From NCBI GenBank assembly GCA_022574415.1, contig JACZSC010000008.1, positions 1-24,890 of the forward strand: a stretch of DNA of 24,890 bases, given 5' to 3'. How positions within the stretch are numbered: the stretch's first letter is position 1; each line of letters starts with the position of its first letter. The notes beneath the pieces are model-generated. The model was given only the letters and a program-made list of their open reading frames with translations, was not told the DNA's origin and ran no database searches. Shown piece by piece: positions 105 to 24,890 of this stretch. The DNA is from Nitrososphaerota archaeon (GTDB taxonomy: Archaea > Thermoproteota > Nitrososphaeria > Nitrososphaerales > Nitrosopumilaceae). The position numbers and the translations under genes were made by a program.

Positions 105-1949
105 TTAAAAACCAAATAGAGTCCTGAATAATTCATAAAGTTCTCTAAAGAAGAAGAATCCTTTTTCAGGTAACTTTGTCTTACCATCAGTTTTTGCTCC
201 CTCAATATCAATTAGGTTAACATCCGCATTGGATAGGTCAGCCCCTGAAAAGTCAGCTCCTTTAAGTTCAGCTTTAAAGAGGTCTACACTTTCAAGGTTA
301 GCTCCTGAAAAGTCAGCTCCTTTAAGATTAGCATATGATAGGTCTGCACTTTGAAGGTTAGCGCCTTTCAAGTCAGCTCCTTTAAGATTAGCATATGATA
401 GGTCTGCACTTTCAAGGATAACGCCTTTCAAGTCAGCACCTTCTAGTTCGGCATATGAGAGATCCGCACCCTTGAGGTCAGCATTGGAAAGATTGATTCC
501 AGACAAATCCACTCCAGACAGGCCAATCCTTTTCATATTGGCATTAGAGAAATCAACCCCATTGAGGATTGCCCCATAGAGGTCAGCTCCAGAGAGATCT
601 GCTCCTGATAGATTAGAATTTGATATATCCGCACCACTGAAGATTGTTCCTGATAGATCAGCTCCAGAGAGGTCAGCATTTGATAAATCAGCATTTGAGA
701 GGTCTACATTTCTGAGATTTACTTCTGACAGATTAACTCCTGAGAGATTAGCCTCTGAAAGAACTGCATTTGAAAGGATAATTCCAGAGACGTGAGCTCC
801 TGAAAAGTCAGCTCCATTGAGATTTGCATTTGAAAAGTCTGTACCTTTTAGATTTGCATCCGAAAAGTTAGTTCCGGAGAGAATAGCACCAGAGAGGTTA
901 GCTTCTGATAGATTGGCAGCTTCAAACGTAGCTCCAGAGAGATTGGACTCTTTGAGATTTGCATTTGAAAGGTCTACCCCTTTGAGAACAGCTTCGGGGA
1001 GATTAACTCCTGAGAGATTTACTCCTTTGAGGTCAACACCTGAAAGATCTACTCCCCTGAGAATGACTCCTGAAAGATCAGCGTTTGTAAGATCAGTACC
1101 ATTTAGAATAGCTCCAGAAAGGTCGGTTCCTTTGAGGCTGGCTCCTGATAAATCAGCATTTATGAGGATTGTATTTTTGAAAACAGCTCCGGAGAAATCA
1201 ACCCCTGAGAGGTTTGCCTCAGTGAAGTCAGTACCTGTAAAGTCTGTAGCATTAAGAATGACCCCTGATAGATTAGCCTTTGAGAGGTTGCTTTCTCTGA
1301 CAATAGCTTTTGAGAGGTCAGCACCATTGAGGTTGGCTCCTGAGAGGTCTGATCCTGAGAGGGCAGCTCCCGTGAAGTTAGCTCCTGAGAGATTTGCATC
1401 TTTAAGTTTGTTATTTTGAAGATTAATTCCTGAAAAGTCAGCTCCTGAGAGGTTGGCTCCAGAGAAGTCAACATTTAGGAAACCAGCACCTTTTATGATG
1501 GCTCCTGAGAGGTCGGCACCTGAGAAGTTTGATCCTTCAGCATTCAAATTTGAGATATTTATGCCTTTGAGAATAGCATCTGAAAAGTCAGTTCCCAAGG
1601 TGGCGACCTCTTCGATCTTAGCATTTGAGAGGTCTGCACCCCTGAGGTTAGCACCTGAAAGTATACCTTGGAAGAAGTCAACCCTTGAGAGGTTGGCCCC
1701 TGAAAGAATAGCGTTTGAGAAATCTATACGTGTGAGAATATCTCCAGAGAAGTTAGCGCCCGAAAGATCCGCTCTCGTGAGGTTCACTTGAAAGAGTTCT
1801 TGACCAGTGAGATCACAAGTACTCAAGTTAACAAATGGTGCAAAAGGTTGTTCACAATGAAAATGTGCATTTGTGCCTTGGGAACTAAAAAGGGTCATAC
1901 CTAGCATGAATACTAAAAATAAAATCAAGAAATTTGAAAGTTTAATCAA
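105..1949 (-). CDS. Pentapeptide-repeat protein with N-terminal signal/anchor helix
   Basis: 614-aa ORF. The hydrophobic N-terminus is MIKLSNFLILFLVFMLGMTLF. The rest is roughly 100 tandem A(N/D)LSG-type pentapeptides (ANLSGADLSGA...), seen in the DNA as 15-nt periodicity. Confidence 0.9.
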   Translation of the reverse strand: MIKLSNFLILFLVFMLGMTLFSSQGTNAHFHCEQPFAPFVNLSTCDLTGQELFQVNLTRADLSGANFSGDILTRIDFSNAILSGANLSRVDFFQGILSGANLRGADLSNAKIEEVATLGTDFSDAILKGINISNLNAEGSNFSGADLSGAIIKGAGFLNVDFSGANLSGADFSGINLQNNKLKDANLSGANFTGAALSGSDLSGANLNGADLSKAIVRESNLSKANLSGVILNATDFTGTDFTEANLSGVDFSGAVFKNTILINADLSGASLKGTDLSGAILNGTDLTNADLSGVILRGVDLSGVDLKGVNLSGVNLPEAVLKGVDLSNANLKESNLSGATFEAANLSEANLSGAILSGTNFSDANLKGTDFSNANLNGADFSGAHVSGIILSNAVLSEANLSGVNLSEVNLRNVDLSNADLSNADLSGADLSGTIFSGADISNSNLSGADLSGADLYGAILNGVDFSNANMKRIGLSGVDLSGINLSNADLKGADLSYAELEGADLKGVILESADLSYANLKGADLKGANLQSADLSYANLKGADFSGANLESVDLFKAELKGADFSGADLSNADVNLIDIEGAKTDGKTKLPEKGFFFFRELYELFRTLFGF

Positions 1950-7357: not shown

Positions 7358-8242
7358 TCAAAGATATCTTCTGTATTCCTTGATGTATCTTTTTATGAGC
7401 CATTGAAGGAATATTCTTTCCTCGTTTTTCACCTGTGATCTTTCCAAGGCATTATAGTAGCTATTTCTTCCCTCATATGGAATATCAAGCATTGGATAGT
7501 TTTTCCTGTTAAGGATAAAGTTCATGACAAGCCTGGTAATCCTGCCATTTCCATCACCGAATGGATGTATTGTAACAAATTTCAGATGTGCCAGTGCAGC
7601 AAGCTCAACTGGATGAATCTTATTCTTGCTTTTGTGGTACCATTTGAAAAAATCTGTCATCATAGGGTATACCTTTACGGGTGAAGGAGGCATGAACTTG
7701 CTACCGCTAATTGCTACTTGGTATTTTCTTATCTTTCCAGAGATGTCGGGTTTTGTCAGATGGAAAAGCTCCCAGTGCCAGTCCAGTATTTCCTGCAATG
7801 ACAAGTCTTTTTTCTGTTTTAGAATTTTATAGAACAGATCCCTGTGGGCCTCGGCTTCTTGTACATCTCTCATTGGTTTGCCTTTTGGTGCAATGCCCCT
7901 TTCCAGAAGATCTGCTGTTTCTCTTCTGGTGAGTGTTGATCCTTCTATCCTTTGGGTATCGTATGTAAATCTGGTGGCAAAATTTTGCAGCTCTTTTTCT
8001 TTGATAGATTTTGGTGCTGCCCTTTGCTCTTTGTAAAAGTGCTTTTTGATTGTATCAATATCATCGTACCATTTTTCTTTGTAGATATCATCAAGAAATT
8101 TTTTCTTGATCTTGATGATGTTTTTTGGGATTTTCGTGCCAAGGTAGAGCTCCTTTTTCTGTACCTTTTTGCCGTCCCTCGTGCTATGTTCTAAATAGTA
8201 GTAGATCTTTTTCTTGAGTATCTTCTTTTTTATGGTAACCAT
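7358..8242 (-). CDS. fic: Fic/DOC-family protein (AMPylase-type)
   Basis: 294-aa ORF containing the canonical Fic active-site motif HPFGDGNGRITR (HxFx[D/E]GNGRxxR). Confidence 0.9.
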   Translation of the reverse strand: MVTIKKKILKKKIYYYLEHSTRDGKKVQKKELYLGTKIPKNIIKIKKKFLDDIYKEKWYDDIDTIKKHFYKEQRAAPKSIKEKELQNFATRFTYDTQRIEGSTLTRRETADLLERGIAPKGKPMRDVQEAEAHRDLFYKILKQKKDLSLQEILDWHWELFHLTKPDISGKIRKYQVAISGSKFMPPSPVKVYPMMTDFFKWYHKSKNKIHPVELAALAHLKFVTIHPFGDGNGRITRLVMNFILNRKNYPMLDIPYEGRNSYYNALERSQVKNEERIFLQWLIKRYIKEYRRYL

Positions 8243-8422: not shown

Positions 8423-8464
8423 GTTCGTATCAAATGTAATTCAGGTCTAAACGAATTTATCGAT
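8423..8464 (+). repeat. 42-bp flank sequence 'X' (starts with the GTTCGTATCAAATGT motif), identical copy at 23043-23084
   Basis: GTTCGTATCAAATGTAATTCAGGTCTAAACGAATTTATCGAT is 42/42 identical at both loci. Here it abuts the casposon left end. Confidence 0.95.
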
Positions 8465-8465
8465 T

Positions 8466-8518
8466 ATCGATAAAAAGGCAATCCCCCCCTCTCACGAAGA
8501 AAAATGTGACGGGTAATC
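8466..8518 (+). repeat. Casposon left terminal inverted repeat (TIR-A, left)
   Basis: ATCGATAAAAAGGCAATCCCCCCCTCTCACGAAGAAAAATGTGACGGGTAATC. Its exact reverse complement is at 16908-16960. It contains a C7 run that stands out in AT-rich DNA. Confidence 0.95.
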
Positions 8519-8574
8519 TTCGTAACCTTTTTAGCTGAAATGTGCGTAAACCATGGTAGACCGAGGTAAACAAA

Positions 8575-8844
8575 ATGCCAACAATATCAGCAAAACTGTC
8601 AAAGAAAGAACATGATGCAATTGTTGAATATGCAAATGCTTGTGGAGAAACAGTATCTAATCTTGTAAGAAAGGTAATGTTGACTGAGGCTACCTTCATG
8701 AATGGTTATCATGATTCTATGGATTATCACTATGAGATCACAGTTCCTGATAATGTTTCAGGTGAAGAGGAAGATAGAATTGTTTTAGGTGCCTACAATA
8801 AAATTAGAAGAATTTTAGGTTTGAAAGAGCAAGATGAGATTTAA
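8575..8844 (+). CDS. Small ribbon-helix-helix (CopG/MetJ-like) DNA-binding protein
   Basis: 89-aa ORF. The N-terminus MPTISAKLSKKEHDAIVEYANACGETVSNLVRKVM fits a beta-strand/helix/helix RHH pattern. It is the first gene inside the left TIR. Confidence 0.5.
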   Translation: MPTISAKLSKKEHDAIVEYANACGETVSNLVRKVMLTEATFMNGYHDSMDYHYEITVPDNVSGEEEDRIVLGAYNKIRRILGLKEQDEI

Positions 8845-8847
8845 GAA
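8812..8847 (+). repeat. 36-nt direct repeat (copy 1), 3' end of the RHH gene
   Basis: ATTTTAGGTTTGAAAGAGCAAGATGAGATTTAAGAA versus ATTTTAGGTTTTGAAGAGATAGATGAGATTTAAGAA at 9235-9270 (32/36). A third partial copy, AGGATTTGAAGAAATTAATGAGATTTAA, is at 8853-8880. Confidence 0.8.
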
Positions 8848-8876
8848 TTTTCAGGATTTGAAGAAATTAATGAGAT

Positions 8877-9203
8877 TTAATCTACGATTAGTTGAATCCC
8901 TTGAAGAGATAAACCGAAAATAACCATTCCTAGTGGAATATACTTTGTTTTATAATTCCAATAAACTTCAAAACCTCGATGAACTGGGTCCGTTGCTCCC
9001 TTTGGTGTATGAGCCATCTCAATATATGCAACATCTTTTTCTTCCCATCTTTCAAAACCTTTGTTAATTAGATGCTTAGTTTTCCACTTTTTCCAATTAT
9101 TCTCGGTTGGTTTTTTACCATAATACTTTATCATTAGTATAAACCCAAATATCTCACATGCAATTCCAATCACAGCAATAATTTCAAAAGATTCTAAAAC
9201 CAT
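8877..9203 (-). CDS. Small membrane protein (108 aa)
   Basis: N-terminal hydrophobic helix IIAVIGIACEIFGFILMI and C-terminal helix IPLGMVIFGLSLQGIQLI. It is bracketed by the 36-nt direct repeats. Confidence 0.55.
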   Translation of the reverse strand: MVLESFEIIAVIGIACEIFGFILMIKYYGKKPTENNWKKWKTKHLINKGFERWEEKDVAYIEMAHTPKGATDPVHRGFEVYWNYKTKYIPLGMVIFGLSLQGIQLIVD

Positions 9204-9234
9204 ACGATAGAAATTTGCATTGTATTATCTAAGG

Positions 9235-9270
9235 ATTTTAGGTTTTGAAGAGATAGATGAGATTTAAGAA
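9235..9270 (+). repeat. 36-nt direct repeat (copy 2)
   Basis: See 8812-8847. Confidence 0.8.
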
Positions 9271-9317
9271 CACTGAAAATTTGTCAAAACTTGACGATTA
9301 ATAAAATGAAAATTTAG

Positions 9318-9968
9318 TTAACTCTCTATTTTAGTAATTAATTTTTCAAATATTTCAGATGATCCTCTCAATAATTTGTAAAGTGCATCTATGTTTTGAC
9401 CCCTACTTAGCATTCTACAAGAGTAGGTATTTCCAACACTTTCGTAGCGAGGCTGAATATCTATAGAAAGCCAATCATCTAACCTATCATTATCGCCTTT
9501 AGCAGTAAAATGTAATCTGCTTGTTTGTAATGGTCTGCCTATGATTTCTTCAAAATCTTTTTGTATTCTGGAGTCTTCAGATGCTGCAGATATTGACAAA
9601 ATAGCATTTTTATCACTGATATAATTACTCATACAATCTACTTCGTAAAATCTAACAAATTTTTCAAGATTTGTTTTAAAATCACGATTTGAAACTGAAA
9701 AGAATTCTTTCTGTGCTTCAATTAAATTAGTCACCCGCGGATTATGAAAACCAAAAACTAATTTTGAATAATCTGTATAGAATTCTGTATTTTGTTTTGT
9801 AGCATTAATAGATCCTATGCTTGAAGCAGCCATGTTTTTGTAATTTAGTTGGGTTAAGATATCTGTAATTACTATTCTATCAAGAGGCCAGTAAACACTT
9901 TTCAATCTGATGCCTAATCTTTTATCAATGACCCTTTCTCTTTCAAACACAGGAATTTTTTTTGCCAT
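9318..9968 (-). CDS. Hypothetical protein (216 aa), casposon cargo
   Basis: Clean ORF 6 nt downstream of the wHTH gene on the same strand. No motif recognised. Confidence 0.6.
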   Translation of the reverse strand: MAKKIPVFERERVIDKRLGIRLKSVYWPLDRIVITDILTQLNYKNMAASSIGSINATKQNTEFYTDYSKLVFGFHNPRVTNLIEAQKEFFSVSNRDFKTNLEKFVRFYEVDCMSNYISDKNAILSISAASEDSRIQKDFEEIIGRPLQTSRLHFTAKGDNDRLDDWLSIDIQPRYESVGNTYSCRMLSRGQNIDALYKLLRGSSEIFEKLITKIES

Positions 9969-9974
9969 TGTTTA

Positions 9975-10499
9975 TCAAGTTGTACTTATAGGTTGTTGAT
10001 CCATATTCTCATAAGACATATGTGGTCTAATTTTTTGCCTTAGTGTTCCTACTAGAATAGATTCAAATTTTTCTTTGGTGCGTTCCTTTTCTTGATGATC
10101 TTGTTTTGTGATTTCTTCCCAATCTCTTGCTAGTTTGATTTCTGTTTTATCAGATCCCGACACACTTTCTGTTTTTCTTTCACTAGGATACATTATATCA
10201 AATAAGGAATCAAAAACTAATTCTGGAATGTCTGTGACATCATAATACGAAAAACCTTTATTCCCACTTTTTTCGTAAAAATTCTTTACTAAATTACCGT
10301 CTTGTAATTCGTTTAGTCGAATAGTTAAACTACTGGGACTAAATTGAAATTTTTCTTTTATTTCATTAAATGACATCTTTCCATGTTTTAGCAATGCAAT
10401 CAATAATCCAAGATTTTTTTCATCCGAAATCCCTTTTAGTAAAAGCCTTATTTCCTCAGGCATTTCGTTGGAATAATTTAATAGGGTACTAGAGTACAA
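9975..10499 (-). CDS. Winged-helix (ArsR/MarR-like) DNA-binding protein
   Basis: 174-aa ORF. NLGLLIALLKHGKMSFNEIKEKFQFSPSSLTIRLNELQDGNLVKNF fits an HTH plus wing pattern. Confidence 0.55.
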   Translation of the reverse strand: MYSSTLLNYSNEMPEEIRLLLKGISDEKNLGLLIALLKHGKMSFNEIKEKFQFSPSSLTIRLNELQDGNLVKNFYEKSGNKGFSYYDVTDIPELVFDSLFDIMYPSERKTESVSGSDKTEIKLARDWEEITKQDHQEKERTKEKFESILVGTLRQKIRPHMSYENMDQQPISTT

Positions 10500-10534
10500 T
10501 TTTCTGAATCTCAGTACAATTTCTTGTATTTTGT

Positions 10535-10544
10535 ATATTTATAA
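10535..10544 (+). promoter_or_regulatory. TATA-like box upstream of 10565..11098
   Basis: ATATTTATAA is centred about 25 nt upstream of the GTG start, consistent with a leaderless archaeal transcript. It lies in a 65-nt divergent intergenic region. Confidence 0.3.
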
Positions 10545-10564
10545 TTTGTTATGATATTAATCGT

Positions 10565-11098
10565 GTGAGTGGCCGTTGGGAAAAATACAATCGGAGATTA
10601 GAGAAGGAGTTTGAACCTCTTAAAAGAGTCATGACAATGACTATCTACGGATCGTATTATCCTCAATCAGAAAAAGACTTTCTAATAAGTCAGAGAGATT
10701 TTTTGAGAGACAAAGGATATGAAAATACGAATATTGTAGATGATTATCCTGATCCTGAACCTGATATAACTTCTTTAGAAAAAAGTATAAGATGTTTAGA
10801 ATTTTCTGATGTTAATTTTTTAGTTTTTACTAGAGAAGGAAAACGGTATGGAGTGTCAAGAGAATTAACACATATTGCAACATCAAGTAGAATGATTGAT
10901 AAAATACCTTTTTGTACCGTATTTGAACAAGTTAGAGATGAAAGAGATTCCATACCACCACTGTCTCTTGACGATATAAATAATTCAGGAATTAATAGAC
11001 GAGAATTTGAAACTGAACAACAATTGCAAACTGCTTTATCCCAACAATCTTTTGCAAAACTAAGGAGATTACAAAATACATTAATCAAACGCCTATAA
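10565..11098 (+). CDS. Hypothetical protein (177 aa); weak resemblance to nucleoside 2-deoxyribosyltransferase/TIR-like Rossmann proteins
   Basis: GTG start. The pattern MTIYGSYY ... SDVNFLVFTREGKRYGVSRELTHIA loosely resembles the strand/helix layout and G..xE motif of that fold. Not a secure call. Confidence 0.5.
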   Translation: MSGRWEKYNRRLEKEFEPLKRVMTMTIYGSYYPQSEKDFLISQRDFLRDKGYENTNIVDDYPDPEPDITSLEKSIRCLEFSDVNFLVFTREGKRYGVSRELTHIATSSRMIDKIPFCTVFEQVRDERDSIPPLSLDDINNSGINRREFETEQQLQTALSQQSFAKLRRLQNTLIKRL

Positions 11099-11164
11099 TT
11101 AATCGATATAGTCTTAATGTATAAAGTACCTTAATGTATTTTGAATTGATATAATTCAAAAATA

Positions 11165-12946
11165 TCAAACAGAGTGTTTATCAAAATAATTTAATGATAA
11201 AGGAAATGATTCATTCATAATTTTCTCATCAATAGACTTGATTTGCCCTAACCATAATCTTTTACGATCGGCATTAAGATTAACTTCTCTTTCATATTCT
11301 TTGATCTTACCAATCTCTGAAATGTTATCCTGTAAAATAGAAGAACGAAGTCTAGCACTACGAAGCAATCTAATTTTCATAATTAGTTTTCCATCTTTTT
11401 CATATGTCTGAAGATTTTCAATGTCTCGAGTTCCAAGTCTACCGAGACCACGTTGTTTCCATTTTCCATTATAACGATAAAATCCATTTTGTAAATAGAA
11501 AACATCATCAGCAGTATTCTCAAAAGAAAACTCACCTAATCTATTTGAATCAATATCTAGAAATTTTGTGACGCAAAGACTGTCAGTTGCAAAACTTACA
11601 ACATATCGTTCCAAGCCATATTTTTGCACAAATTTGTATAATTGAGCACGAGTTATGCCTGTAATTGTGGCAAAAATAACAGGATTAAATAAATTTCCTA
11701 TTTTAAATCGAATTCGCTCACCAGTTTTTCCATAGATGGAGTTTAGAATTATTTTAATTGGTAATTGTAGTGGATTCTTGTTTTGTTTTAGTTGTAATCT
11801 TTTTGTGTACATTTTTTCAATAAAATCTTTGAATGGAAAAAATTCTTTATCGGGAATAAATTGAAATGATTTCAAAATTTTATAATTAATGTTTTTACAT
11901 GCTCGTAACTCAGCCAGTGTGCAATAAGTTTGAAACTTTCCTGATGGGAATATAATAATATTATTTGCACGGAAAGGTAATGGTGGAATATATTTACAAT
12001 CAGAAATATTTACTTTAATTTTAAAAAAACCAAGCGTTGCATCACTTTGAATTTTATTTGATGATATCCATTGACCTTTTGTTATATCAGGAATTTTTGT
12101 TAATGCATGTGGATATGCTGAATTAATATCATAAAGATAAGCGGTTCCTATGTAGCCACGTTTTAGAATTTCAAATCTTCCACCAAAGTAACTCCTGTAA
12201 GCTAAATCTTGTATTTCATATGGTATGCAATCAAACTTTGGAATTTCAATATGATTATTGATTAGAACTTTTTCTGCAAGGTAACCAGAACTAATCCATC
12301 GTGCAGGATAAAATGAAAACGCATTATGAAATAAATTTATCCAGTGCTGTGATAATTCTTTAGTATATTTACAATCTGCAATACAATAATTTCTAACTTT
12401 AGTTTTATTTCTGTTATAATATCTTGGTGAAAATTGTGTACGTTCTTTTTTCATTAAAAGATAATCATTAGGTAGATCCTCAATGTTCTGTTGATATGCA
12501 TTAATCAATGAAGTATGATAGAACTGTGCAATATCAAAAAAGATAGAACTATGATGTCCTTTTCTGATGGCTAATTTCCTACTAGGAATATAATCTAGAG
12601 TATAGTCACCATAATGAAATCTCAATAATCCTGTCTTCTTGTAGGAATTGAGCTCTTCACCTAGCAGTTTGAGAATGACTTCAGCATCATAGGTGATATT
12701 ATAGAAAAAGTTCCATGCTCCTTGAAATTTCTTAGAAAATAGGAATTTTAGGCATGATCCAGGCGTGATTTTATCAAGGAATCGGCCATCAGAATCAGCT
12801 ATGAGGAAAGGAGTTCCCTCGTAGGTCTCAGTATCAAGACCATAAACTGTTCTAAGACTAGAACAAGCAAACCGCCTATCTTGATGAACTTTGGTTCGCA
12901 GTCTTCTAAGATCTTTGTAATCTGTTATGGGGATGGATTCTGCCAT
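11165..12946 (-). CDS. polB: Protein-primed family-B DNA polymerase (pPolB)
   Basis: 593-aa ORF. Exonuclease motifs: ExoI YGLDTETY, ExoII NITYDAEVI, ExoIII YCIADCKY. Polymerase motifs: A LYDINSAYP (DxxSxYP), B KIILNSIYGK (Kx3NSxYG), C SFATDSL (variant of YxDTDS). The compact size is typical of protein-primed PolBs. Confidence 0.92.
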   Translation of the reverse strand: MAESIPITDYKDLRRLRTKVHQDRRFACSSLRTVYGLDTETYEGTPFLIADSDGRFLDKITPGSCLKFLFSKKFQGAWNFFYNITYDAEVILKLLGEELNSYKKTGLLRFHYGDYTLDYIPSRKLAIRKGHHSSIFFDIAQFYHTSLINAYQQNIEDLPNDYLLMKKERTQFSPRYYNRNKTKVRNYCIADCKYTKELSQHWINLFHNAFSFYPARWISSGYLAEKVLINNHIEIPKFDCIPYEIQDLAYRSYFGGRFEILKRGYIGTAYLYDINSAYPHALTKIPDITKGQWISSNKIQSDATLGFFKIKVNISDCKYIPPLPFRANNIIIFPSGKFQTYCTLAELRACKNINYKILKSFQFIPDKEFFPFKDFIEKMYTKRLQLKQNKNPLQLPIKIILNSIYGKTGERIRFKIGNLFNPVIFATITGITRAQLYKFVQKYGLERYVVSFATDSLCVTKFLDIDSNRLGEFSFENTADDVFYLQNGFYRYNGKWKQRGLGRLGTRDIENLQTYEKDGKLIMKIRLLRSARLRSSILQDNISEIGKIKEYEREVNLNADRKRLWLGQIKSIDEKIMNESFPLSLNYFDKHSV

Positions 12947-13251
12947 ATAGCATCAGGAATTGAAACTTCTTGTCCTCGCTTTCGTTTTCCAAATTGTCTT
13001 CTAATATCTAAATATTTTAAGTCAGGAAAATTATCTCGGATTAATCTAATGTAACGATGGTATTTTTCTAAAGATGATGAACGTTTACTAACTTTTGGTT
13101 CAGGTGCAACAGTTACTTTTGTTTGTTTTTCTAATCTTTCTAATGCTTTTTGTGTTCTGGAACGAAGTATTCGTACTTCATTATTATTTGGAAATAACTT
13201 TAATGCATCAAGTCTTTTTAAAAGTTTATTTCTTTGTTCTTCTAAACTCAT
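12925..13251 (-). CDS. Hypothetical basic protein (108 aa) immediately upstream of polB
   Basis: Overlaps the polB start by 22 nt, indicating operon coupling. Lys/Arg-rich. No motif recognised. Confidence 0.6.
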   Translation of the reverse strand: MSLEEQRNKLLKRLDALKLFPNNNEVRILRSRTQKALERLEKQTKVTVAPEPKVSKRSSSLEKYHRYIRLIRDNFPDLKYLDIRRQFGKRKRGQEVSIPDAIWQNPSP

Positions 13252-13280
13252 AGTATCACCAAAAAAATATGAAGGTTAGT

Positions 13281-13622
13281 CTAGGTTTTTCCTAGACTAA
13301 ATCTTCGTATTGGTCTATTGTTTCTACTTTTGTCAAGATAGGTCTCGATTGTAAGTTTATCACCAATTTTGATAATGTTGTCTTTACCACCTCTAGTCCA
13401 CTGATTTAGGAGTGAACTGTTTTTTGATTCATGGCTTTTTAGAGGAACAACAATTGTATTCCATTTGTTATTCTCAAAGATTTCAGCTTCAACATTGATA
13501 GAATATTCTGTTTCAAATGTTTCAAGCTCTTTTACACGAATCTTTATTGTGTCTGGTTTGTCTTTGTCTTTGCTTTTGTATTGCCCCCACTTTAAAAAAG
13601 GAGGATAAAGAGAATCACTCAT
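13281..13622 (-). CDS. Hypothetical protein (113 aa), polB operon
   Basis: Its start overlaps the stop of the upstream AbrB-like gene by 4 nt (ATGA). The sequence looks beta-rich. No motif recognised. Confidence 0.6.
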   Translation of the reverse strand: MSDSLYPPFLKWGQYKSKDKDKPDTIKIRVKELETFETEYSINVEAEIFENNKWNTIVVPLKSHESKNSSLLNQWTRGGKDNIIKIGDKLTIETYLDKSRNNRPIRRFSLGKT

Positions 13623-13822
13623 TTTGGAATTCTCCTTTTTGTTTTGATGGGAGTTAGAATCAATCTCCCATCTTGTGACATGGAAACATTTACTTCCATG
13701 TTTTTACTGAGATAGTTCTCAGTGAATGTCTTGGGCAAAGTTACCACTTTAGAAAAATTCATGGTACTGACTTTTCTTGTGCCCAAGTCTAGATTTTTGA
13801 CTATGGATTTTACTTTAGACAT
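13619..13822 (-). CDS. AbrB/SpoVT/MazE-like swapped-hairpin DNA-binding protein
   Basis: 67-aa ORF. SKVVTLPKTFTENYL...VSMSQDGRLILTPI matches the (V/I)T(I/L)PK ... G.(I/L)(I/L)L.P pattern of AbrB-type domains. It is the first gene of the leftward polB operon. Confidence 0.5.
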   Translation of the reverse strand: MSKVKSIVKNLDLGTRKVSTMNFSKVVTLPKTFTENYLSKNMEVNVSMSQDGRLILTPIKTKRRIPK

Positions 13823-13872
13823 ATTATGCTGTTAGTAAATACCTTAAAATGGGATACTAATGTAGCCCACTT

Positions 13873-14559
13873 ATGGAACTGACCTACGGTATTGGACCAA
13901 ACAAAACCAAGTATTGCAAATTTAAGGCTAAAAACTCTGAATTTGTTTACGATATTGACGGAATTCGCAAAGGAAAAAGATTCAAACATGAACAACGCCG
14001 AGAATTAATTATTAATATTATTGCAAGAAATCACATTAGTCATAATCATTTACTACATCTTACAACAGCATTAGGAAAAATTGCAAAAAAAACTACAGTA
14101 AAAATACTCAAAGAACTAGAAGATGATCGACTAATTGAATCAGAGCAGGAAGGAAATAGTTCTAATTCTATAAAAACATGGATGATAAAATCACCAGAAT
14201 CTGAAATTGAGAAACATGCAAAAAAAGAAACACAAAACATCATTGCAAGTTTGCAAGAATACATTCAAACCATAGAGAAAAAATTTGAAAAACTAAACCA
14301 AGTTGAAAAAGATTATGCAATGGCCAATCTTTTAGACATATTACATAGTTGGCAACCAATTATTGAAATTATAAATCATGACACTAGAATTAAAAATGAA
14401 AAGAAAAAGTTTGACTCTCTTCTAAATCAAGCTTATAATATTTTAAAATATGAAAAACGTGATGGTATAGATACAAGATCATTTTTGCGTAGGTTACTGC
14501 ATCTTAAAGCATCAGAACCAATGGTTATTATGAATAATTTTTTAGAGGAAATTAAATGA
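13873..14559 (+). CDS. Putative winged-helix protein with helical C-terminal domain
   Basis: 228-aa ORF. ISHNHLLHLTTALGKIAKKTTVKILKELEDDRLIESEQ is HTH/wing-like. The stop overlaps the start of the next gene by 4 nt. Confidence 0.55.
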   Translation: MELTYGIGPNKTKYCKFKAKNSEFVYDIDGIRKGKRFKHEQRRELIINIIARNHISHNHLLHLTTALGKIAKKTTVKILKELEDDRLIESEQEGNSSNSIKTWMIKSPESEIEKHAKKETQNIIASLQEYIQTIEKKFEKLNQVEKDYAMANLLDILHSWQPIIEIINHDTRIKNEKKKFDSLLNQAYNILKYEKRDGIDTRSFLRRLLHLKASEPMVIMNNFLEEIK

Positions 14560-15125
14560 ATGACTTTACACCTAATCCATTAGTTTTACAAGAACTTGAA
14601 AAAGTCAGTCAAGTTTGGGATAACCTGATAGAAAACATGCATACAAAATCGAATAAAGATAGAATTACATCAATTCTAGTTCAAGTAATGCTTGAGTACT
14701 ACATTGATAGAATTTTGATTATTAACAAAGTTGATTCGCCTAAGAAAATTTACAAGATGAGATATGATAGTACACTCGAAAAATTAAAAGAACTCAATTT
14801 AATTGATAACAACCTTGAACATGACCTGCTGAATTTCTATGAAATTAGAAACATATATGCACATGAAATTGAAATTCATGAAAAACAGATTTTGGATTTA
14901 GTTAATGGTGTTAAAACAGTAAAGGACCCTACTAGATTTATAGAGAAAGATAGATTTCAGCAAGTTTTTCAAATTATTTTACGGCAAGTTCAGAGAACAT
15001 TTGAAGCAGTTCTAGTTAGGGAACAAGAAAAAAGTGAAGAAAATACTCACTCTATATCTCAAAATAATTCTTCTTTTTCACGTAATAGTCTACGATATTG
15101 TGAACAGCAATTTTGGCTATTGTAA
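14556..15125 (+). CDS. HEPN-superfamily (MtlR/DUF4145-like) protein
   Basis: 189-aa ORF. LEKLKELNLIDNNLEHDLLNFYEIRNIYAHE carries the Rx4H HEPN signature in the context typical of MtlR-like HEPN domains. The last ~24 codons run antisense through a cas1 3' relic, so the C-terminus may be chimeric. Confidence 0.5.
   Translation: MNDFTPNPLVLQELEKVSQVWDNLIENMHTKSNKDRITSILVQVMLEYYIDRILIINKVDSPKKIYKMRYDSTLEKLKELNLIDNNLEHDLLNFYEIRNIYAHEIEIHEKQILDLVNGVKTVKDPTRFIEKDRFQQVFQIILRQVQRTFEAVLVREQEKSEENTHSISQNNSSFSRNSLRYCEQQFWLL
15052..15123 (-). pseudogene. Relic of a second, diverged cas1 3' end
   Basis: It translates to ITIAKIAVHNIVDYYVKKKNYFEI*, against the intact Cas1 C-terminus ITIAKIAVQNLVEFCTGKQKEFRI*. 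Nucleotide identity is nearly complete over ACAGCAAT(T/C)TTGGCTATTGT. Homology stops exactly at the TAATCCTGAAAATTC motif (15124). Confidence 0.8.
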
Positions 15126-15144
15126 TCCTGAAAATTCTTAATTC
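15124..15144 (+). repeat. AATCCTGAAAATTCTTAATTC motif copy
   Basis: Exact consensus, directly abutting the cas1 relic. Confidence 0.85.
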
Positions 15145-15271
15145 ATAGTTTGAGATAGAAACTTTATGCCTGTCTGTGAAAAATGCGGTCAGCCAGCTTC
15201 TCAATGTATTACATGAGATGAAGCGAAGGGCGTAACTAGAATACATTATTTTTGCAAAAATCATAATCCAA

Positions 15272-15291
15272 AATCTGAAAATTCTTAATTC
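15272..15291 (+). repeat. AATC(C)TGAAAATTCTTAATTC motif copy, promoter-like
   Basis: AATCTGAAAATTCTTAATTC, followed by TTAGTTTCAACTAGAAAATTCATG. The same leader precedes the ATG at 23977. Confidence 0.85.
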
Positions 15292-15312
15292 TTAGTTTCA
15301 ACTAGAAAATTC

Positions 15313-15552
15313 ATGACCGATGATAAAAAAATGAAAATCATGTGCAAATGGTGTAATGTTTCTAAAACCTGTCACATCGTTAGTCAAGAAATTACAGATC
15401 ATCATGGACACTATGGGATAGATAGTGTTATGATGGCCAAAGTCAAAATTCACAAGCATTTCAAAGGAAAAAATTACTGCAAAGGCTCAGATAGAACAAT
15501 TACTGTACCTCTAGATAAGATACTAAAAGATAATGAAAAGAATAGAGATTAG
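15313..15552 (+). CDS. Small Cys/His-rich protein (79 aa)
   Basis: CKWCNVSKTCH...DHHGH...CKG. Preceded by the conserved leader and followed immediately by the AGATTCTAAACTCTTTTT relic. Confidence 0.55.
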   Translation: MTDDKKMKIMCKWCNVSKTCHIVSQEITDHHGHYGIDSVMMAKVKIHKHFKGKNYCKGSDRTITVPLDKILKDNEKNRD

Positions 15553-15568
15553 ATTCTAAACTCTTTTT
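15551..15568 (+). repeat. AGATTCTAAACTCTTTTT: copy of the cas1 stop-codon region
   Basis: Identical to 15773-15790, which encodes the last Cas1 codons KEFRI* on the minus strand. Confidence 0.85.
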
Positions 15569-15770
15569 TTCACAAAAATTAATGAAAAACGTGCTCAAGT
15601 GTTCGTACCAGTGCGTATTCTCGGATCAAAGTCAAACAGTAAACCTTTATCCACTTACTCGAAATGTTTGACTATGGGAGTAGGTCGAACACAAAGACAT
15701 TATTGTAACAAGTGTCATCTAAAACGCCCTAAATGTATCTGTAAAAAACAGTAAACGAGATTAATAATTC

Positions 15771-16850
15771 TTAGATTCTAAACTCTTTTTGTTTTCCAGT
15801 ACAAAACTCAACTAAATTCTGTACAGCAATCTTGGCTATTGTTATTTCATGACAAGACTTTAGACCGTCTTTGGTCTTTGCTCCATGTTTAGACGCATAG
15901 CGTCTTTCTTTCTGGAATGTTCTTTCAAGTAATTCTAAGAACCGTCTAATCAAATTATAGTCTAAAACAACTAAACCCTCTTTTGTAAAGGCGTAATCTT
16001 TCTTGTAGATTCTATGCTCTTTATTGGTTTCATTAGCTAACATGTATGCAGAATAATCAACAAGCCATCTGAACGGCTCTATCAAGTCATAAACTAACGG
16101 CTGAAAACTAATGTGTTCTTTGTGATAGAATCCAAAGTATGCATCTAGACCCATTCCGTTGATATATTTGGAAATCTCTCCAGCTAAAACCGAATAGCCG
16201 TAATTCAAAAGCCCATTAATGACATCACTAGCAGTTCTTTTTGAAATCTTCTGACTAGACTGATTTCTTGAAACAAATCCATGCCTTTCAGGAATTAGTT
16301 TTGAATATTCAATAAAGTACGCTCGACCAGAACCAGCCTCTAAACCCAATTCAGAACGTATTGAAACTTGTCTTAGATTACCCTCAAGAGTTTCAATTCC
16401 TAAATTCAAGTCAGTCCTTTCTACAGACTTTAAGAATCTGATCTGCGATTGTAATTTTGCTTTAACAATCTGCTTTGAAAGGTATCTTCTCTTTTCTGTA
16501 TCCCTAAAGGTGTCATACTGAGCCATTCGATATTTTGTCGCAGTGTTTGATTCCATTACACCATTAATCATAGAAACTGGCTTTCCGTAGGTATCTAGTA
16601 GAATAAGATTTCGATTATGTTGATTTAGTAGGCTCATGGCTTCGGTTGAAACGTAGCCTTTACCAGATAGAACGATTTTTTCATAAGGAAGATTATTGAT
16701 GAACCATTCTTCTGATTCGGATTCTTTGAATGGGTCGTAATTGTTCTTTAGAACAAGTTTGTTATCTTTTACAGAAACAGAAAAGCCGTAACCCTTGAGA
16801 AATTTTACGTTGTAATGACTGTGTTGACCTTTCTGCGTCATAACGCACAT
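15771..16850 (-). CDS. cas1: Cas1 homologue (casposase-type Cas1-solo)
   Basis: 359-aa ORF. Cas1 signatures are ILLDTYGKP (N-terminal beta domain), GLEAGSGRAYF (catalytic Glu region), NGLLNYGYSVL, and YFGFYHKEH...LVYDLIEPFR (catalytic His and Asp/Glu). A C-terminal extension is present. The gene ends 58 nt from the right TIR. Confidence 0.93.
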   Translation of the reverse strand: MCVMTQKGQHSHYNVKFLKGYGFSVSVKDNKLVLKNNYDPFKESESEEWFINNLPYEKIVLSGKGYVSTEAMSLLNQHNRNLILLDTYGKPVSMINGVMESNTATKYRMAQYDTFRDTEKRRYLSKQIVKAKLQSQIRFLKSVERTDLNLGIETLEGNLRQVSIRSELGLEAGSGRAYFIEYSKLIPERHGFVSRNQSSQKISKRTASDVINGLLNYGYSVLAGEISKYINGMGLDAYFGFYHKEHISFQPLVYDLIEPFRWLVDYSAYMLANETNKEHRIYKKDYAFTKEGLVVLDYNLIRRFLELLERTFQKERRYASKHGAKTKDGLKSCHEITIAKIAVQNLVEFCTGKQKEFRI

Positions 16851-16907
16851 TTGATCAAAATTATTACTTAACGAATTTCCAACAAATCATAACGTGCATT
16901 ATAACGT

Positions 16908-16960
16908 GATTACCCGTCACATTTTTCTTCGTGAGAGGGGGGGATTGCCTTTTTATCGAT
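16908..16960 (-). repeat. Casposon right terminal inverted repeat (TIR-A, right)
   Basis: Exact reverse complement of 8466-8518. Subterminal direct sub-repeats (C/T)ATAACGTG x2 lie at 16887-16908. Confidence 0.95.
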
Positions 16961-16961
16961 T

Positions 16962-17040
16962 ATCGATAAAAAGGGAAAGTCCCCCTCCCACGCACGAATT
17001 ACGCTTATGACTTGCGTTATGACGTGAGTTGGTTTGTTGG
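16962..17040 (+). repeat. Diverged casposon-type end (TIR-B) lying head-to-head with TIR-A right
   Basis: ATCGATAAAAAGGGAAAGTCCCCCTCCCACGCACGAATTACGCTTATGACTTGCGTTATGACGTGAGTTGGTTTGTTGG. It shares with TIR-A the ATCGATAAAAAGG terminus, a C-rich block, two CG(C)TTATGAC sub-repeats and a terminal ...TTTGTTGG (cf. CCAACAAA at 16879). Confidence 0.8.
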
Positions 17041-17051
17041 AAAGGTTAACA

Positions 17052-22065: not shown

Positions 22066-22109
22066 CTAAGAATTAAGAATTTTCAGGATTAATAGTTCGT
22101 ATCAAATGT
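22066..22109 (-). repeat. Composite repeat (AATCCTGAAAATTCTTAATTC motif + GTTCGTATCAAATGT motif), inverted partner of 23918-23960
   Basis: The reverse complement ACATTTGATACGAACTATTAATCCTGAAAATTCTTAATTCTTAG matches ACATTGATACGAATTGTTAATCCTGAAAATTCTTAATTCTTAT, with 1 indel and 3 mismatches. Confidence 0.85.
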
Positions 22110-22153: not shown

Positions 22154-22984
22154 TTGACATACCAACCATATGAGGGCAAAATTATTTATCAGAAAAACCT
22201 GACCGATGATCTTGCAATATTTAGACTTGAACTATCAGATAAGAGCAAAATATTAGATTTCAAGCCAGGTCAATTTGTACCGCTAGGAGTGAAAATAAAA
22301 GACAAGGTGGCGTACAGAGCTTACTCGATTTCATCACCTCCTGAAGAAAGAAGATATTATGAATTTTACATCAGATGGGCAACAAAGCCGGTTTTAGGTA
22401 AAATAACCAGCGCTCTTTTTACTTTGAAAAAAAATAAGCTTATCTTCTGGCGAAAACCTGCAGGAGTTTTTACCATCGAAGATAAAAAACCGAATGGAAC
22501 CACTGAGAGTAGGCAGATGATTCTCGTTTCTTCAGGAACAGGTATTGCCCCATTTATCAGCTACATACTACACTTGAGAAAAGTAGGTTCGAAAAGAAAG
22601 ATCGTTTTGCTTCATGGTGCCAAATATGTTGCAGAGTTAGGTTACAAAAATATGCTTGAAAGACTAGCATCTGAAACTAGAGACAATTGGGATTTCACCT
22701 ACATACCTACGGTTAGCCAGCTGGATCATCCCTCATCTACGGGGTGGACAGGAAATGTTGGACGAGTGGGTGACTTACTAATAGATATCGACAATCACAG
22801 GTCAGAACTAGAAAAAAAATTAGGAAAAAATGTCACTCCAAAAAATTCATTCTTTTACATTTGCGGATACAATAATACAATAAATAGAGTCATTTCATTT
22901 TTGACCCCACTAGGTTTTGTTTCCAATCGAAATAAAAGAAAAGACGGATCCTTTGACATAAAGTCTGAATCATACGGAGAGTAA
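22154..22984 (+). CDS. Ferredoxin-NADP+ reductase-type FAD/NAD(P)-binding oxidoreductase
   Basis: 276-aa ORF (TTG start in the track). FAD-binding RAYSISS (RxYS) motif, NAD(P)-binding VSSGTGIAPF motif and C-terminal FYICGY-type motif. Confidence 0.8.
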   Translation: MTYQPYEGKIIYQKNLTDDLAIFRLELSDKSKILDFKPGQFVPLGVKIKDKVAYRAYSISSPPEERRYYEFYIRWATKPVLGKITSALFTLKKNKLIFWRKPAGVFTIEDKKPNGTTESRQMILVSSGTGIAPFISYILHLRKVGSKRKIVLLHGAKYVAELGYKNMLERLASETRDNWDFTYIPTVSQLDHPSSTGWTGNVGRVGDLLIDIDNHRSELEKKLGKNVTPKNSFFYICGYNNTINRVISFLTPLGFVSNRNKRKDGSFDIKSESYGE

Positions 22985-23042: not shown

Positions 23043-23084
23043 GTTCGTATCAAATGTAATTCAGGTCTAAACGAATTTATCGAT
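23043..23084 (+). repeat. Second copy of 42-bp flank 'X'
   Basis: 42/42 identical to 8423-8464. Confidence 0.95.
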
Positions 23085-23165
23085 AAAGAGTGAAAATAGA
23101 ACTTCCCTCTCCGACGCACAAATTCCTATTATAACTATCGTTATGACGTGAGTTTGTTTTGTTGG
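23079..23165 (+). repeat. Solo casposon-type end (TIR-B'), related to 16962-17040
   Basis: ATCGATAAAGAGTGAAAATAGAACTTCCCTCTCCGACGCACAAATTCCTATTATAACTATCGTTATGACGTGAGTTTGTTTTGTTGG aligns along its length with TIR-B (shared CGACGCAC/CCACGCAC, CGTTATGACGTGAGTT, TTTGTTGG). No partner end and no cas1/polB are nearby. Confidence 0.8.
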
Positions 23166-23483
23166 AGATTTGAAAAAAGAAAAACAACGATTAAACTAAA
23201 AAAATAGAGTAAAATGTCTATTCAATAGTATTTTAAAAGATACCAATTCTGTTGTAATACATTGCCAGAACATACTAAAGAATGTGAGTATAGAATCACT
23301 CATGACTTTAGGCATGATAACTGTTTTTGTGAATGTCATGACAAAGGGAAGTATCATGGAAGAATTACCAAAAATGTTAGAAAAAGCAATACCAATACTA
23401 CAAAAGCAAGCAAAGATTAGTTAGGCAACTTAATTTGTTTTTCTAAATCTCGTAATTTCCTTGATAAATTATCACAATTCCTC

Positions 23484-23917: not shown

Positions 23918-23960
23918 CATTGATACGAATTGTTAATCCTGAAAATTCTTAATTCTTATG
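23918..23960 (+). repeat. Composite repeat, inverted partner of 22066-22109; also left arm of a ~25-bp inverted pair with 24357-24382
   Basis: See 22066-22109. TAATCCTGAAAATTCTTAATTCTTA versus the reverse complement of 24357-24382, TAATTCTGAAAATTCTTAATTCTTAA. Confidence 0.85.
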
Positions 23961-23976
23961 TTGATCTAGAAAATTC

Positions 23977-24315
23977 ATGAATTTTGAACTGAAAAAAACT
24001 CTGTCAATAAAGATAAAACGCTTAGATATGTTCCCAAATTACTTTTTTGGAATTGCTGAGATAAATGGAGAAGACTACAAGATTAACATTCAAGGTCAGA
24101 GTGTATTTACAAAAAATTCAATCAAATTGCCAATAAAATTTAAAGATGAAAAAGCATTATTACGTCTAAGCGGAATTAATGGTTCTTATTTTGAGGATAT
24201 TGTAAATTACGAAGGAAAATCAGAATGGATAGAAATAGGTTCTGATAGAATTTTGTTCTATTTGGCAGATCATCAAGACCAAATTAACATTATAGATGTT
24301 CTAAGTAGATTCTAA
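23977..24315 (+). CDS. Hypothetical protein (112 aa) in a repeat-bounded cassette
   Basis: Preceded by the same leader as 15313..15552 (CTAGAAAATTCATG). The stop lies inside an AGATTCTAAACTCTTTTT relic. Confidence 0.55.
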   Translation: MNFELKKTLSIKIKRLDMFPNYFFGIAEINGEDYKINIQGQSVFTKNSIKLPIKFKDEKALLRLSGINGSYFEDIVNYEGKSEWIEIGSDRILFYLADHQDQINIIDVLSRF

Positions 24316-24398
24316 ACTCTTTTTGTTTCATCCTGGACTCCTAAACCCTTTTTTTATTAAGAATTAAGAATTTTCAGAATTAAAAAAGAGTTTAGAAT
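24307..24398. repeat. Inverted pair of cas1-3'-end relics enclosing an inverted AATTCTGAAAATTCTTAATTC motif
   Basis: AGATTCTAAACTCTTTTT at 24307-24324, GAATTAAGAATTTTCAGAATT at 24361-24381, and AAAAAGAGTTTAGAAT at 24383-24398. Confidence 0.8.
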
Positions 24399-24410
24399 TT
24401 TATTTAGGTC

Positions 24411-24890
24411 CTAGAGGCGTAATTTAGATTCTTTATCAGATTTCTCAGAGTTATTCTTGACTTTCTTTGCTTCTAGTATAGATTCTCGCTCTGCTTTCTC
24501 AGCTTCTCGTTGTTGTTTCTCTGCTTCGAGTTTAGCTATTTGATCAGCCTGACGCTGAGCTTTCTCAGCGTCTAGTTGTAGTTGCTTGGCTTCTTGTTTA
24601 GCTAATCTATCAGCTTCCCTCTGAGCCTTGTCAGCTTCGAGTTTAGCTAGTCTATCAGTTTCTCTCTGAACTTTCTCTGCGTCACGTTGTTGTTTCTCTA
24701 ATTCTAATTGTAATTGCTTTGCTTCTTGTTTAGCTAATCTATCAGCTTCCCTCTGAGCCTTGTCAGCCTCTCGCTGTAGTTGCTTGGCTTCTTGTTTAGC
24801 TAATCTATCAGCTTCCCTCTGAGCCTTGTCAGCTTCTCGCTGTAGTTGCTTTGCTTCTTGTTTAGCTAATCTATCAGCTTCCCTCTGAGC
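24411..24890 (-). CDS. Coiled-coil tandem-repeat protein, C-terminal part (ORF continues beyond the window)
   Basis: Manual minus-strand translation gives ...AQREADRLAKQEAKQLQREADKAQREADRLAKQEAKQLQ... ending ...KSDKESKLRL* with the stop at 24411-24413. It is open to the window edge. Confidence 0.7.
   Translation of the reverse strand, partial: AQREADRLAKQEAKQLQREADKAQREADRLAKQEAKQLQREADKAQREADRLAKQEAKQLQLELEKQQRDAEKVQRETDRLAKLEADKAQREADRLAKQEAKQLQLDAEKAQRQADQIAKLEAEKQQREAEKAERESILEAKKVKNNSEKSDKESKLRL
24530..24890. repeat. 66-bp tandem repeat (22-aa coiled-coil period)
   Basis: GTTTAGCTAATCTATCAGCTTCCCTCTGAGCCTTGTCAGC recurs at 24596, 24728, 24794 and 24860 (spacing 66 or 132), with diverged units between and before. 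Confidence 0.85.

Follow-up and report, generated by a model that had tools for sequence, protein, structure and literature searches.

Family-1 casposons, a kind of element known in ammonia-oxidizing archaea since 2014, are the least sampled among the experimentally studied casposon families. They include NitAR1-C1 and other elements of Nitrosopumilus and Thaumarchaeota, and the casposase (the casposon Cas1 homologue) of "Candidatus N. koreensis" AR1 belongs to the same family (PMC4046053, PMC6563490, PMC6614799, PMC8464041). Their published core combines a family B DNA polymerase that is primed by a protein (pPolB), small conserved genes, and Cas1 (PMC4046053). Casposons are the proposed ancestors of the adaptation machinery of CRISPR. 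The DNA presented here (the window) is a 24,890-nucleotide stretch of a Nitrososphaerota archaeon of the Nitrosopumilaceae (contig JACZSC010000008.1). Positions 8472 to 16954 were identified with high confidence as an intact, probably recently inserted family-1 casposon, a self-synthesizing transposon of Nitrosopumilales-type archaea, with the open reading frame (ORF) at 15771 to 16841 on the reverse strand as its casposase. The locus is a further example of this kind of element and not a new kind of system, and the related genome loci (numbered with an L below) were all found in Nitrosopumilales metagenome-assembled genomes (MAGs).

The element is 8,483 bp long, similar to NitAR1-C1 (8,185 bp; both ~8 kb), with a GC content of 31% versus 36% in the flanks. 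It is delimited by a 63-nucleotide inverted repeat (98% identity; 8456 to 8518 and 16908 to 16970), which, because of the comparison with relatives, was read in three layers: an outer TTT on the left that is complementary to AAA on the right, a middle 13-bp palindromic target site duplication (TSD), and an inner, perfect 47-bp terminal inverted repeat (TIR). The left TIR (8472 to 8518, forward strand), which opens with AAAAAGGCAATCCCCCCCTCTCACGAAG, is a perfect reverse complement of the right TIR (16908 to 16954, reverse strand), and a homologous left end was found on the metagenome contig L018. The left TSD copy (ATCGATTATCGAT; 8459 to 8471, forward strand) is identical to the right 13-bp copy (16955 to 16967, forward strand). 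As in other family-1 elements, the TIRs open with AAAAA, carry a run of C, and contain CGTTATGA. A different reading, in which the whole 63-nucleotide repeat (with its palindrome centered at 16961) is the TIR and a second element lies head to head toward the right, was rejected; it is ruled out by the register of TTT, 13 bp, and AAAAA in L004, L002, L008, L015, L017, and L019, and the palindrome corresponds to the TSD with its TTT and AAA flanks.

Like NitAR1-C1 and family 1 generally, the element carries a compact Cas1 with no helix-turn-helix (HTH) domain, a protein-primed PolB, and three small conserved genes beside polB. The polymerase gene (11165 to 12946, reverse strand) codes for 593 amino acids (aa) matching PF03175 DNA_pol_B_2 (1.3e-25) and phrog_11768 (1.4e-61), and its product was 56 to 65% identical to the casposon PolB of L002, L004, L007, and L008. 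The three small genes upstream of polB (12925 to 13822, reverse strand), predicted to encode proteins of 108 aa (a possible terminal protein), 113 aa, and 67 aa (AbrB/MazE-like), were found in the same order and with 40 to 55% identity in L004, L007, L008, and L002. The cas1 gene reads inward from the right end as the last gene before the right TIR, the terminal position already assigned to it in an annotation made from the sequence alone (the sequence-only reading). It directly abuts the TIR, unlike the cas1 of NitAR1-C1, which starts ~635 nucleotides in, and the cargo genes also differ from those of known family-1 elements.

The maximal ORF of the casposase (15771 to 16850, reverse strand) translates to 359 aa and covers a complete Cas1 (Pfam Cas_Cas1, residues 20 to 309, E = 7.7e-46). 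The real start is likely M4 at 16841, giving a protein of 356 aa, because the nearest relatives, 355 to 357 aa long, open with MT(L/Q)KG at the position corresponding to M4. The window protein has more than 1,100 homologues, and its highest identity to a protein of the searched collection was 93%, to a metagenome-derived sequence. It was 93% identical to the Cas1 of L015 and 56 to 71% identical to the Cas1 proteins of the MAG loci L001 to L011. On clustering at 50% identity, the family was reduced to two full-length representatives, with the next relatives 46%, 40%, and 34% identical.

The signatures GLEAGSGRAYF (residues 169 to 179), NGLLNYGYSVL (212 to 222), FGFYHKEH (239 to 246), and YDLIEPFR (254 to 261) are intact, as the sequence-only reading had quoted them. 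Their catalytic assignment also held in an alignment to the Methanosarcina mazei casposase 6OPM (chain index +17 relative to the published residue numbers), in which E171, H243, and E258 matched the published active site E162/H232/E247 (PMC6977970). Across 72 diverse aligned Cas1 homologues, E171, H243, and D255 were invariant and E258 was at least 90% conserved. Mutation of D110, R113, K117, K184, Y197, or Y234 impairs the N. koreensis casposase. By numbering and a supplementary alignment recovered by optical character recognition, rather than by direct alignment, these residues appear to map to conserved D110, R113, K117, K201, Y214, and Y251 of the window protein.

The protein was read as a casposase because of the element anatomy, the absence of CRISPR partners, the failure of subtype models, the match to 6OPM, and its clustering with family 1. 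The preference for a casposase over a spacer integrase, expressed in the sequence-only reading, was therefore upheld. The competing explanation is that of an orphan CRISPR adaptation Cas1, a spacer integrase that is left over from, or still works for, a CRISPR-Cas locus beyond the window. In its favor, the protein passed the generic cas1 model TIGR00287 (151 bits), and databases name its relatives "CRISPR-associated endonuclease Cas1"; however, it fell far below the cutoff of all eight CRISPR subtype Cas1 models. The best PDB sequence match was casposase 6OPM (3.7e-33), versus 7e-20 for the best CRISPR Cas1. In a rough neighbor-joining tree (midpoint rooted, without bootstrap), the protein fell inside a tight clade with family-1 casposon Cas1, apart from both an HTH-bearing clade of ~400-aa proteins that includes 6OPM and a clade of ~325- to 345-aa proteins that includes CRISPR Cas1 7CR6.

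An AlphaFold2 (AF2) model built from the 72-sequence alignment, which included distant Cas1 proteins, reached a predicted local distance difference test (pLDDT) score of 88.7 and a predicted template modeling (pTM) score of 0.89. An earlier model built from 33 close homologues was unusable (pLDDT, 54.5) and was discarded. In a Foldseek comparison with the PDB, the best match was again 6OPM, with a template modeling (TM) score of 0.83 to 0.86 over 354 alignment columns (gaps included) for the 356-residue query. TM scores of 0.75 to 0.79 to the CRISPR Cas1 structures 4N06, 7CR6, and 8D3P are a further point for the orphan Cas1, and the two-domain fold and active site are indeed the same as in the CRISPR Cas1 of Archaeoglobus fulgidus (4N06) and Synechocystis (7CR6). 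Unlike CRISPR Cas1, the window protein comes with no Cas2 partner, array, or subtype signature, and its substrate would be the ends of its own element, not short prespacers. The last 60 residues fold into a helix, a β-hairpin, and another helix, all part of the Cas1 catalytic domain, and the chain stops at residue 356, following the last Cas1 helix-hairpin-helix (6OPM has 431 aa). The C-terminal extension that the sequence-only reading proposed to compare with HTH domains thus proved to be the end of the catalytic domain, the entire protein fitting the Cas1 fold. An HTH domain is likewise absent from described family-1 casposases (PMC4046053).

Although the closest sequence and fold match and the same catalytic triad are found in family 2 (M. 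mazei 6OPM, Aciduliprofundum boonei), the features peculiar to that family, namely, an essential 60- to 70-aa C-terminal HTH domain, a PolB of the RNA-primed type, and tRNA or intergenic targets, do not occur in the window element. Integration chemistry at the TIR 3' ends and a TSD of ~13 to 15 bp would be shared with family 2.

No Cas2 or other cas domain was detected in any window ORF or in the 55- to 170-aa stop-to-stop segments from ~9.4 kb onward, a scan that left out antisense segments inside the large genes at 1 to 8.2 kb. No CRISPR array was detected in the window by Tandem Repeats Finder and a direct-repeat search; the only short-period repeats were coding (pentapeptide repeats at 222 to 1541 and a coiled coil at 24496 to 24890). 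The earlier statement that the window holds no Cas2-like ORF and no regularly spaced repeats was borne out by these scans. The absence of Cas2, other cas genes, and an array from the window, the position of the gene inside TIR and TSD boundaries together with pPolB, and the casposon context shared by its relatives leave the orphan CRISPR Cas1 close to refuted. tRNA genes and Rfam families gave no matches in the window. Two coding regions have array-like signals: the gene for a 614-aa pentapeptide-repeat protein (105 to 1949, reverse strand), whose strong tandem-repeat signal could pass for an array, and a repetitive coiled-coil ORF with a 66-bp period that runs off the window (24414 to 24890, reverse strand).

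The family-1 casposon reading is also supported by the insertion register. The N. koreensis target defined by experiment consists of a leader ending in TTT, a 13-bp TSD (ATTGATAAAGAGT), and a spacer opening with AAA (PMC8464041). The window shows the same register (AACGAATTT, ATCGATTATCGAT, and then AAAAAGGC), and, as in family 1, its 13-bp TSD opens with AT(C/T)GA(T/C). The succession of AACGARTTY, 13 bp, and AAAAA is common to L002, L004 (both flanks), L008, L017, L019, and the published N. koreensis site. On both flanks of L004, beside a real EF-2 (elongation factor 2) gene, the leader ends in AACGAGTTT, followed by the TSD ATCGACAGAGAGT and the element end AAAAATAGAATCC; the 13-bp TSDs of L002, L008, L017, and L019 are ATTGACAGAGAAT, ATCGACAAAGAGT, ATCGACTGTCAGT, and ATCGACAATCAGT, respectively. 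The leader motif AACGARTTY and the first six TSD bases (ATCGAY) are kept across loci, and the second half of the TSD varies freely: it is TATCGAT in the window, which produces the palindrome, and AAAGAGT in N. koreensis. A TSD length of 13 was chosen because of the register of the relatives and the N. koreensis experiments. An origin of the unusual window TSD by aberrant integration was rejected, as variation in the second half is seen at further sites, each of which retains an in-frame stop at the TSD/TIR junction.

The target leader (8423 to 8458, forward strand) ends in AACGAATTT and reads in frame as NEF(IDYR-stop), resembling the EF-2 C terminus of L004 (NEFIDRE-stop). It carries the EF-2-like AACGAATTTATCGAT; the real EF-2 3' ends of L004 and L002 read AACGAGTTT followed by ATCGAC. 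Unlike family-1 casposons inserted in EF-2, the window element sits at an orphan EF-2-3'-like sequence with no EF-2 gene attached. Insertion at the EF-2 3' end is common but not universal among family-1 casposons (PMC6563490). The end proximal to the leader is the cas1 side in L002, L008, L019, and both casposon remnants of the window (see below) and the non-cas1 side in the window element and L004, so the orientation of insertion is not fixed.

By analogy with the N. koreensis enzyme, the casposase would use the element's 3'-OH ends (GGATTGCCTTTTT-3') to attack the target (AACGAATTT, ATCGATTATCGAT, and AAAAAGGG, i.e., TTT, 13 bp, and AAA) on its two strands 13 bp apart. Gap repair would then yield the 13-bp duplication ATCGATTATCGAT, and the element would be replicated by its own protein-primed PolB. 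The casposon would have landed between the leader and the end of an older casposon, much as a new CRISPR spacer is placed beside the leader, and the logic of leader-proximal, ruler-measured integration would be shared with CRISPR Cas1.

Several points weigh against this reading. No empty site was found in a sister genome, and a metagenome scan for the TIR returned only three contigs, with neither an empty site nor a second full copy among them. A tblastn search with EF-2 found nothing in the window, which places the target outside any EF-2 gene. Since the TSD is palindromic, its length could formally be any odd number not above 19. The roughness of the Cas1 tree and the indirect mapping of the N. 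koreensis residues count on the same side.

The DNA beyond the right TSD bears on the history of the site. Directly after the TSD, on the "spacer" side of the target, lies a solo casposon end (remnant 1; 16968 to 17051, forward strand). It shares 85% identity with the L015 end on the cas1 side, the stretch directly preceding the L015 cas1, and stops about where a cas1 promoter would begin. Because 16968 to 17051 is the cas1-side end of a different casposon, the order of events inferred here is that the present element inserted between the leader and an earlier casposon, of which only remnant 1 survives. L004 is organized likewise: beyond its TSD lie an old TIR and a PolB fragment (L004 positions 8684 to 9145 and 9600 to 9622). 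Tandem stacking beside older elements is a family-1 trait, and tandem family-1 insertions have been published (PMC6563490).

A second module (23043 to 23170, forward strand) comprises another copy of the leader, ATCGATAAAGAGT, and a decayed cas1-side casposon end. The 42 bp at 8423 to 8464 are 100% identical to those at 23043 to 23084, and ATCGATAAAGAGT differs from the N. koreensis TSD ATTGATAAAGAGT at only one of its 13 positions. This module is truncated within a few nucleotides of the same point as remnant 1, and the two orphan EF-2-like targets lie 14.6 kb apart. No distal inverted partner was found in the window for either solo end. Several cas1 copies were observed head to head in L002 (7829 to 8887, 10001 to 11068, and ~19445), with a 100-nucleotide TIR. 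Judged from the sequences of L002 and L004, casposon stacking and decay recur in this lineage.

A fossil of the 3' end of another cas1 (RITIAKIAVHNIVDYYVKKKNYFEI and a stop; the last 25 codons) was found inside the element at 15052 to 15126 on the reverse strand. It has ~67% DNA identity (counted by eye on the alignment) to the cas1 3' end, in the same frame and with the same stop, and its DYY is nearer to the family consensus ADYC than the window cas1 is. The fossil begins exactly after a copy of a promoter-like 17-mer described below. The homology of the cas1 module to L012, L015, and L016 breaks at ~15594 to 15607, and this break and the fossil together suggest that the cas1 module was replaced by recombination. 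L012 (JAZHEE010000088.1; 924 bp) is a low-coverage contig of an assembly named "Rosenbergiella sp." and is almost certainly thaumarchaeal DNA contaminating a bacterial assembly. It was 94% identical to 16018 to 15594 and 89% identical to 23914 to 23674, joining cas1 to sequence located 8 kb away in the window.

These traces of decay, namely, the solo ends at 16968 to 17051 and 23092 to 23170 and the cas1 fossil, would suit a casposon that is no longer mobile: a fixed element with an intact cas1, or one whose casposase was taken over for a host function or for that of another mobile element. Truncated casposons also occur in L004 and L006, and the window contains the element only once. Against immobility, the TIRs match at 47 of 47 positions and the TSDs at 13 of 13, cas1 and polB are full-length ORFs with conserved motifs, and relatives of the cas1 module with 89 to 94% DNA identity stand in different flanks in L012, L015, and L016, which points to recent movement or exchange. 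Loss of mobility was thus judged improbable, and the element is probably still a mobile family-1 casposon.

The putative cas1 promoter occupies the subterminal region (16842 to 16907, reverse strand), with TTTGTTGGAAA at 16876 to 16886 and an AT-rich box at ~16860 to 16875; on the cas1 strand, the sequence from the TIR to the start codon reads CACGTTATAATGCACGTTATGATTTGTTGGAAATTCGTTAAGTAATAATTTTGATCAAATGTGCGTT-ATG. TTTGTTGGARA followed by an AT-rich box 20 to 30 nucleotides before the first ATG is conserved at the cas1-side ends of L015, L002, L004, L007, L008, and L019. This block would fit a promoter with a B recognition element (BRE) and TATA box for a leaderless mRNA. The published TIRs of NitAR1 and NitAR2 likewise contain CGTTATGAC. 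The sequence-only reading had placed the promoter inside the transposon end; the subterminal region does contain a conserved block resembling a promoter, but this block is internal to the perfect TIR boundary (16908) and does not overlap the TIR. The subterminal repeats reported upstream of cas1 were found as described: ATAACGTG occurs exactly twice in the window (16889 to 16896 and 16901 to 16908), both copies abutting the TIR, but 0.38 copies were expected and 9 of 100 shuffles contained at least two. The count alone is not significant, and its meaning comes from the clustering at the element end (within 20 bp, abutting the TIR) and from conservation in relatives.

It had further been suggested that Cas1, by binding its own ends, could regulate itself. 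In this scheme Cas1 would repress its promoter through subterminal repeats of the form CGTTATRA, three direct copies of which lie in the 70 bp between the TIR and the ATG (16838 to 16845, across the start codon; 16887 to 16894; and 16899 to 16906). Subterminal transposase-binding repeats are common among other transposons, and in many family-1 casposons, the published TIRs of NitAR1 and NitAR2 among them, CGTTATGA(C) and TTTGTTGGARA are conserved at the end on the cas1 side. However, nothing in the locus indicates binding by Cas1, and family-1 casposases have neither an HTH nor another extra DNA-binding domain (AF2 model; PMC4046053). In vitro, the N. koreensis casposase needs only the last ~5 nucleotides of the TIR and tolerates scrambling of the rest (PMC8464041, PMC6614799). 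Moreover, cas1 comes second in an operon in most relatives and is not adjacent to the TIR, there is no overlap between the promoter-like box and the perfect TIR, and the ribbon-helix-helix (RHH) and winged-HTH proteins encoded by the element are likelier regulators. Autoregulation by Cas1 is accordingly unlikely.

A more speculative proposal, to which little weight was given, treats the orphan leaders (identical 42-bp core), together with the 13-bp target and the solo cas1-side end that come after each, as portable landing pads on which casposons would pile up proximal to the leader and decay to solo ends, with the CGTTATGA/TTTGTTGGA block serving as an operator-promoter by which recognition of the ends and expression of cas1 would be linked. 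If true, the locus would be a natural stack of leader, repeat, and insert resembling a proto-CRISPR array. As a family-1 casposon, the element widens the natural target range and shows insertion in either orientation and leader-proximal stacking on an older element. These features could inform experiments on target specificity, and they leave the current picture unchanged.

The remaining genes of the element are mostly cargo. The first gene at the left end (8575 to 8844, forward strand) encodes an 89-aa RHH-like protein, a candidate regulator with weak matches to DUF6290/NikA and the RelB antitoxin that is conserved in L018. It is followed by ORFs for a 108-aa element-specific membrane protein (8877 to 9203, reverse strand), a 216-aa protein without assignment (9318 to 9968, reverse strand), a 174-aa winged-HTH protein with matches to DUF7346 and MarR-type HTH domains (9975 to 10499, reverse strand), and a 177-aa protein without assignment (10565 to 11098, forward strand). 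The cargo genes between 8877 and 11098 had no counterpart in the related loci. A further cargo pair on the forward strand (13873 to 15125) encodes proteins of 228 aa (13873 to 14559) and 189 aa (14556 to 15125), the latter with an Rx4H (EIRNIYAHE) HEPN-like motif and only weak matches to DUF4145 and HepT. PADLOC gave no match for this pair, which may be a HEPN toxin or defense pair; there are reports of HEPN nucleases in NitEve-C1, also a family-1 casposon. The element further contains a 79-aa Cys/His-rich ORF without a family match (15313 to 15552, forward strand).

Its start codon lies 21 nucleotides downstream of a 17-mer, CTGAAAATTCTTAATTC, that occurs seven times inside and outside the casposon (15128, 15275, 23511, and 23939 on the forward strand and 8838, 22070, and 24361 on the reverse strand), in six cases exactly and with one mismatch at 8838. 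It also stands 21 nucleotides upstream of the ATG of the ORF at 23977 and resembles a common BRE/TATA promoter that would give leaderless mRNAs. The last residues and stop of cas1 (15771 to 15790; AAAAAGAGTTTAGAATCT) recur intergenically at 15549 to 15568, 24306 to 24328, and 24383 to 24400, and the motif is possibly terminator-like (opposite strand, CTCTTTTT).

Another motif, ACAGTTCGTATCAAATGT, was observed at gene boundaries (7291, 8424, 17053, 17686, 22096, and 23044 on the forward strand; 23774 and ~23917 on the reverse strand), mostly in one orientation regardless of gene strand. It opens both casposon leaders, was also found inside the L018 casposon and in L012, and may be a candidate att-like or regulator-binding site. 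A 39-nucleotide inverted repeat (95%; 22067 to 22105 and 23920 to 23958) is built of the ACAGTTCGTATCAAATGT and CTGAAAATTCTTAATTC motifs, brackets an FAD/NAD oxidoreductase gene (22154 to 22984) and the second module, and might delimit a segment able to move or invert. The immediate left neighbor of the casposon, flanked by two copies of ACAGTTCGTATCAAATGT, is a Fic-domain gene (7358 to 8242, reverse strand) that matched the PADLOC candidate defense models SoFic/PDC-S04 (1.9e-32).

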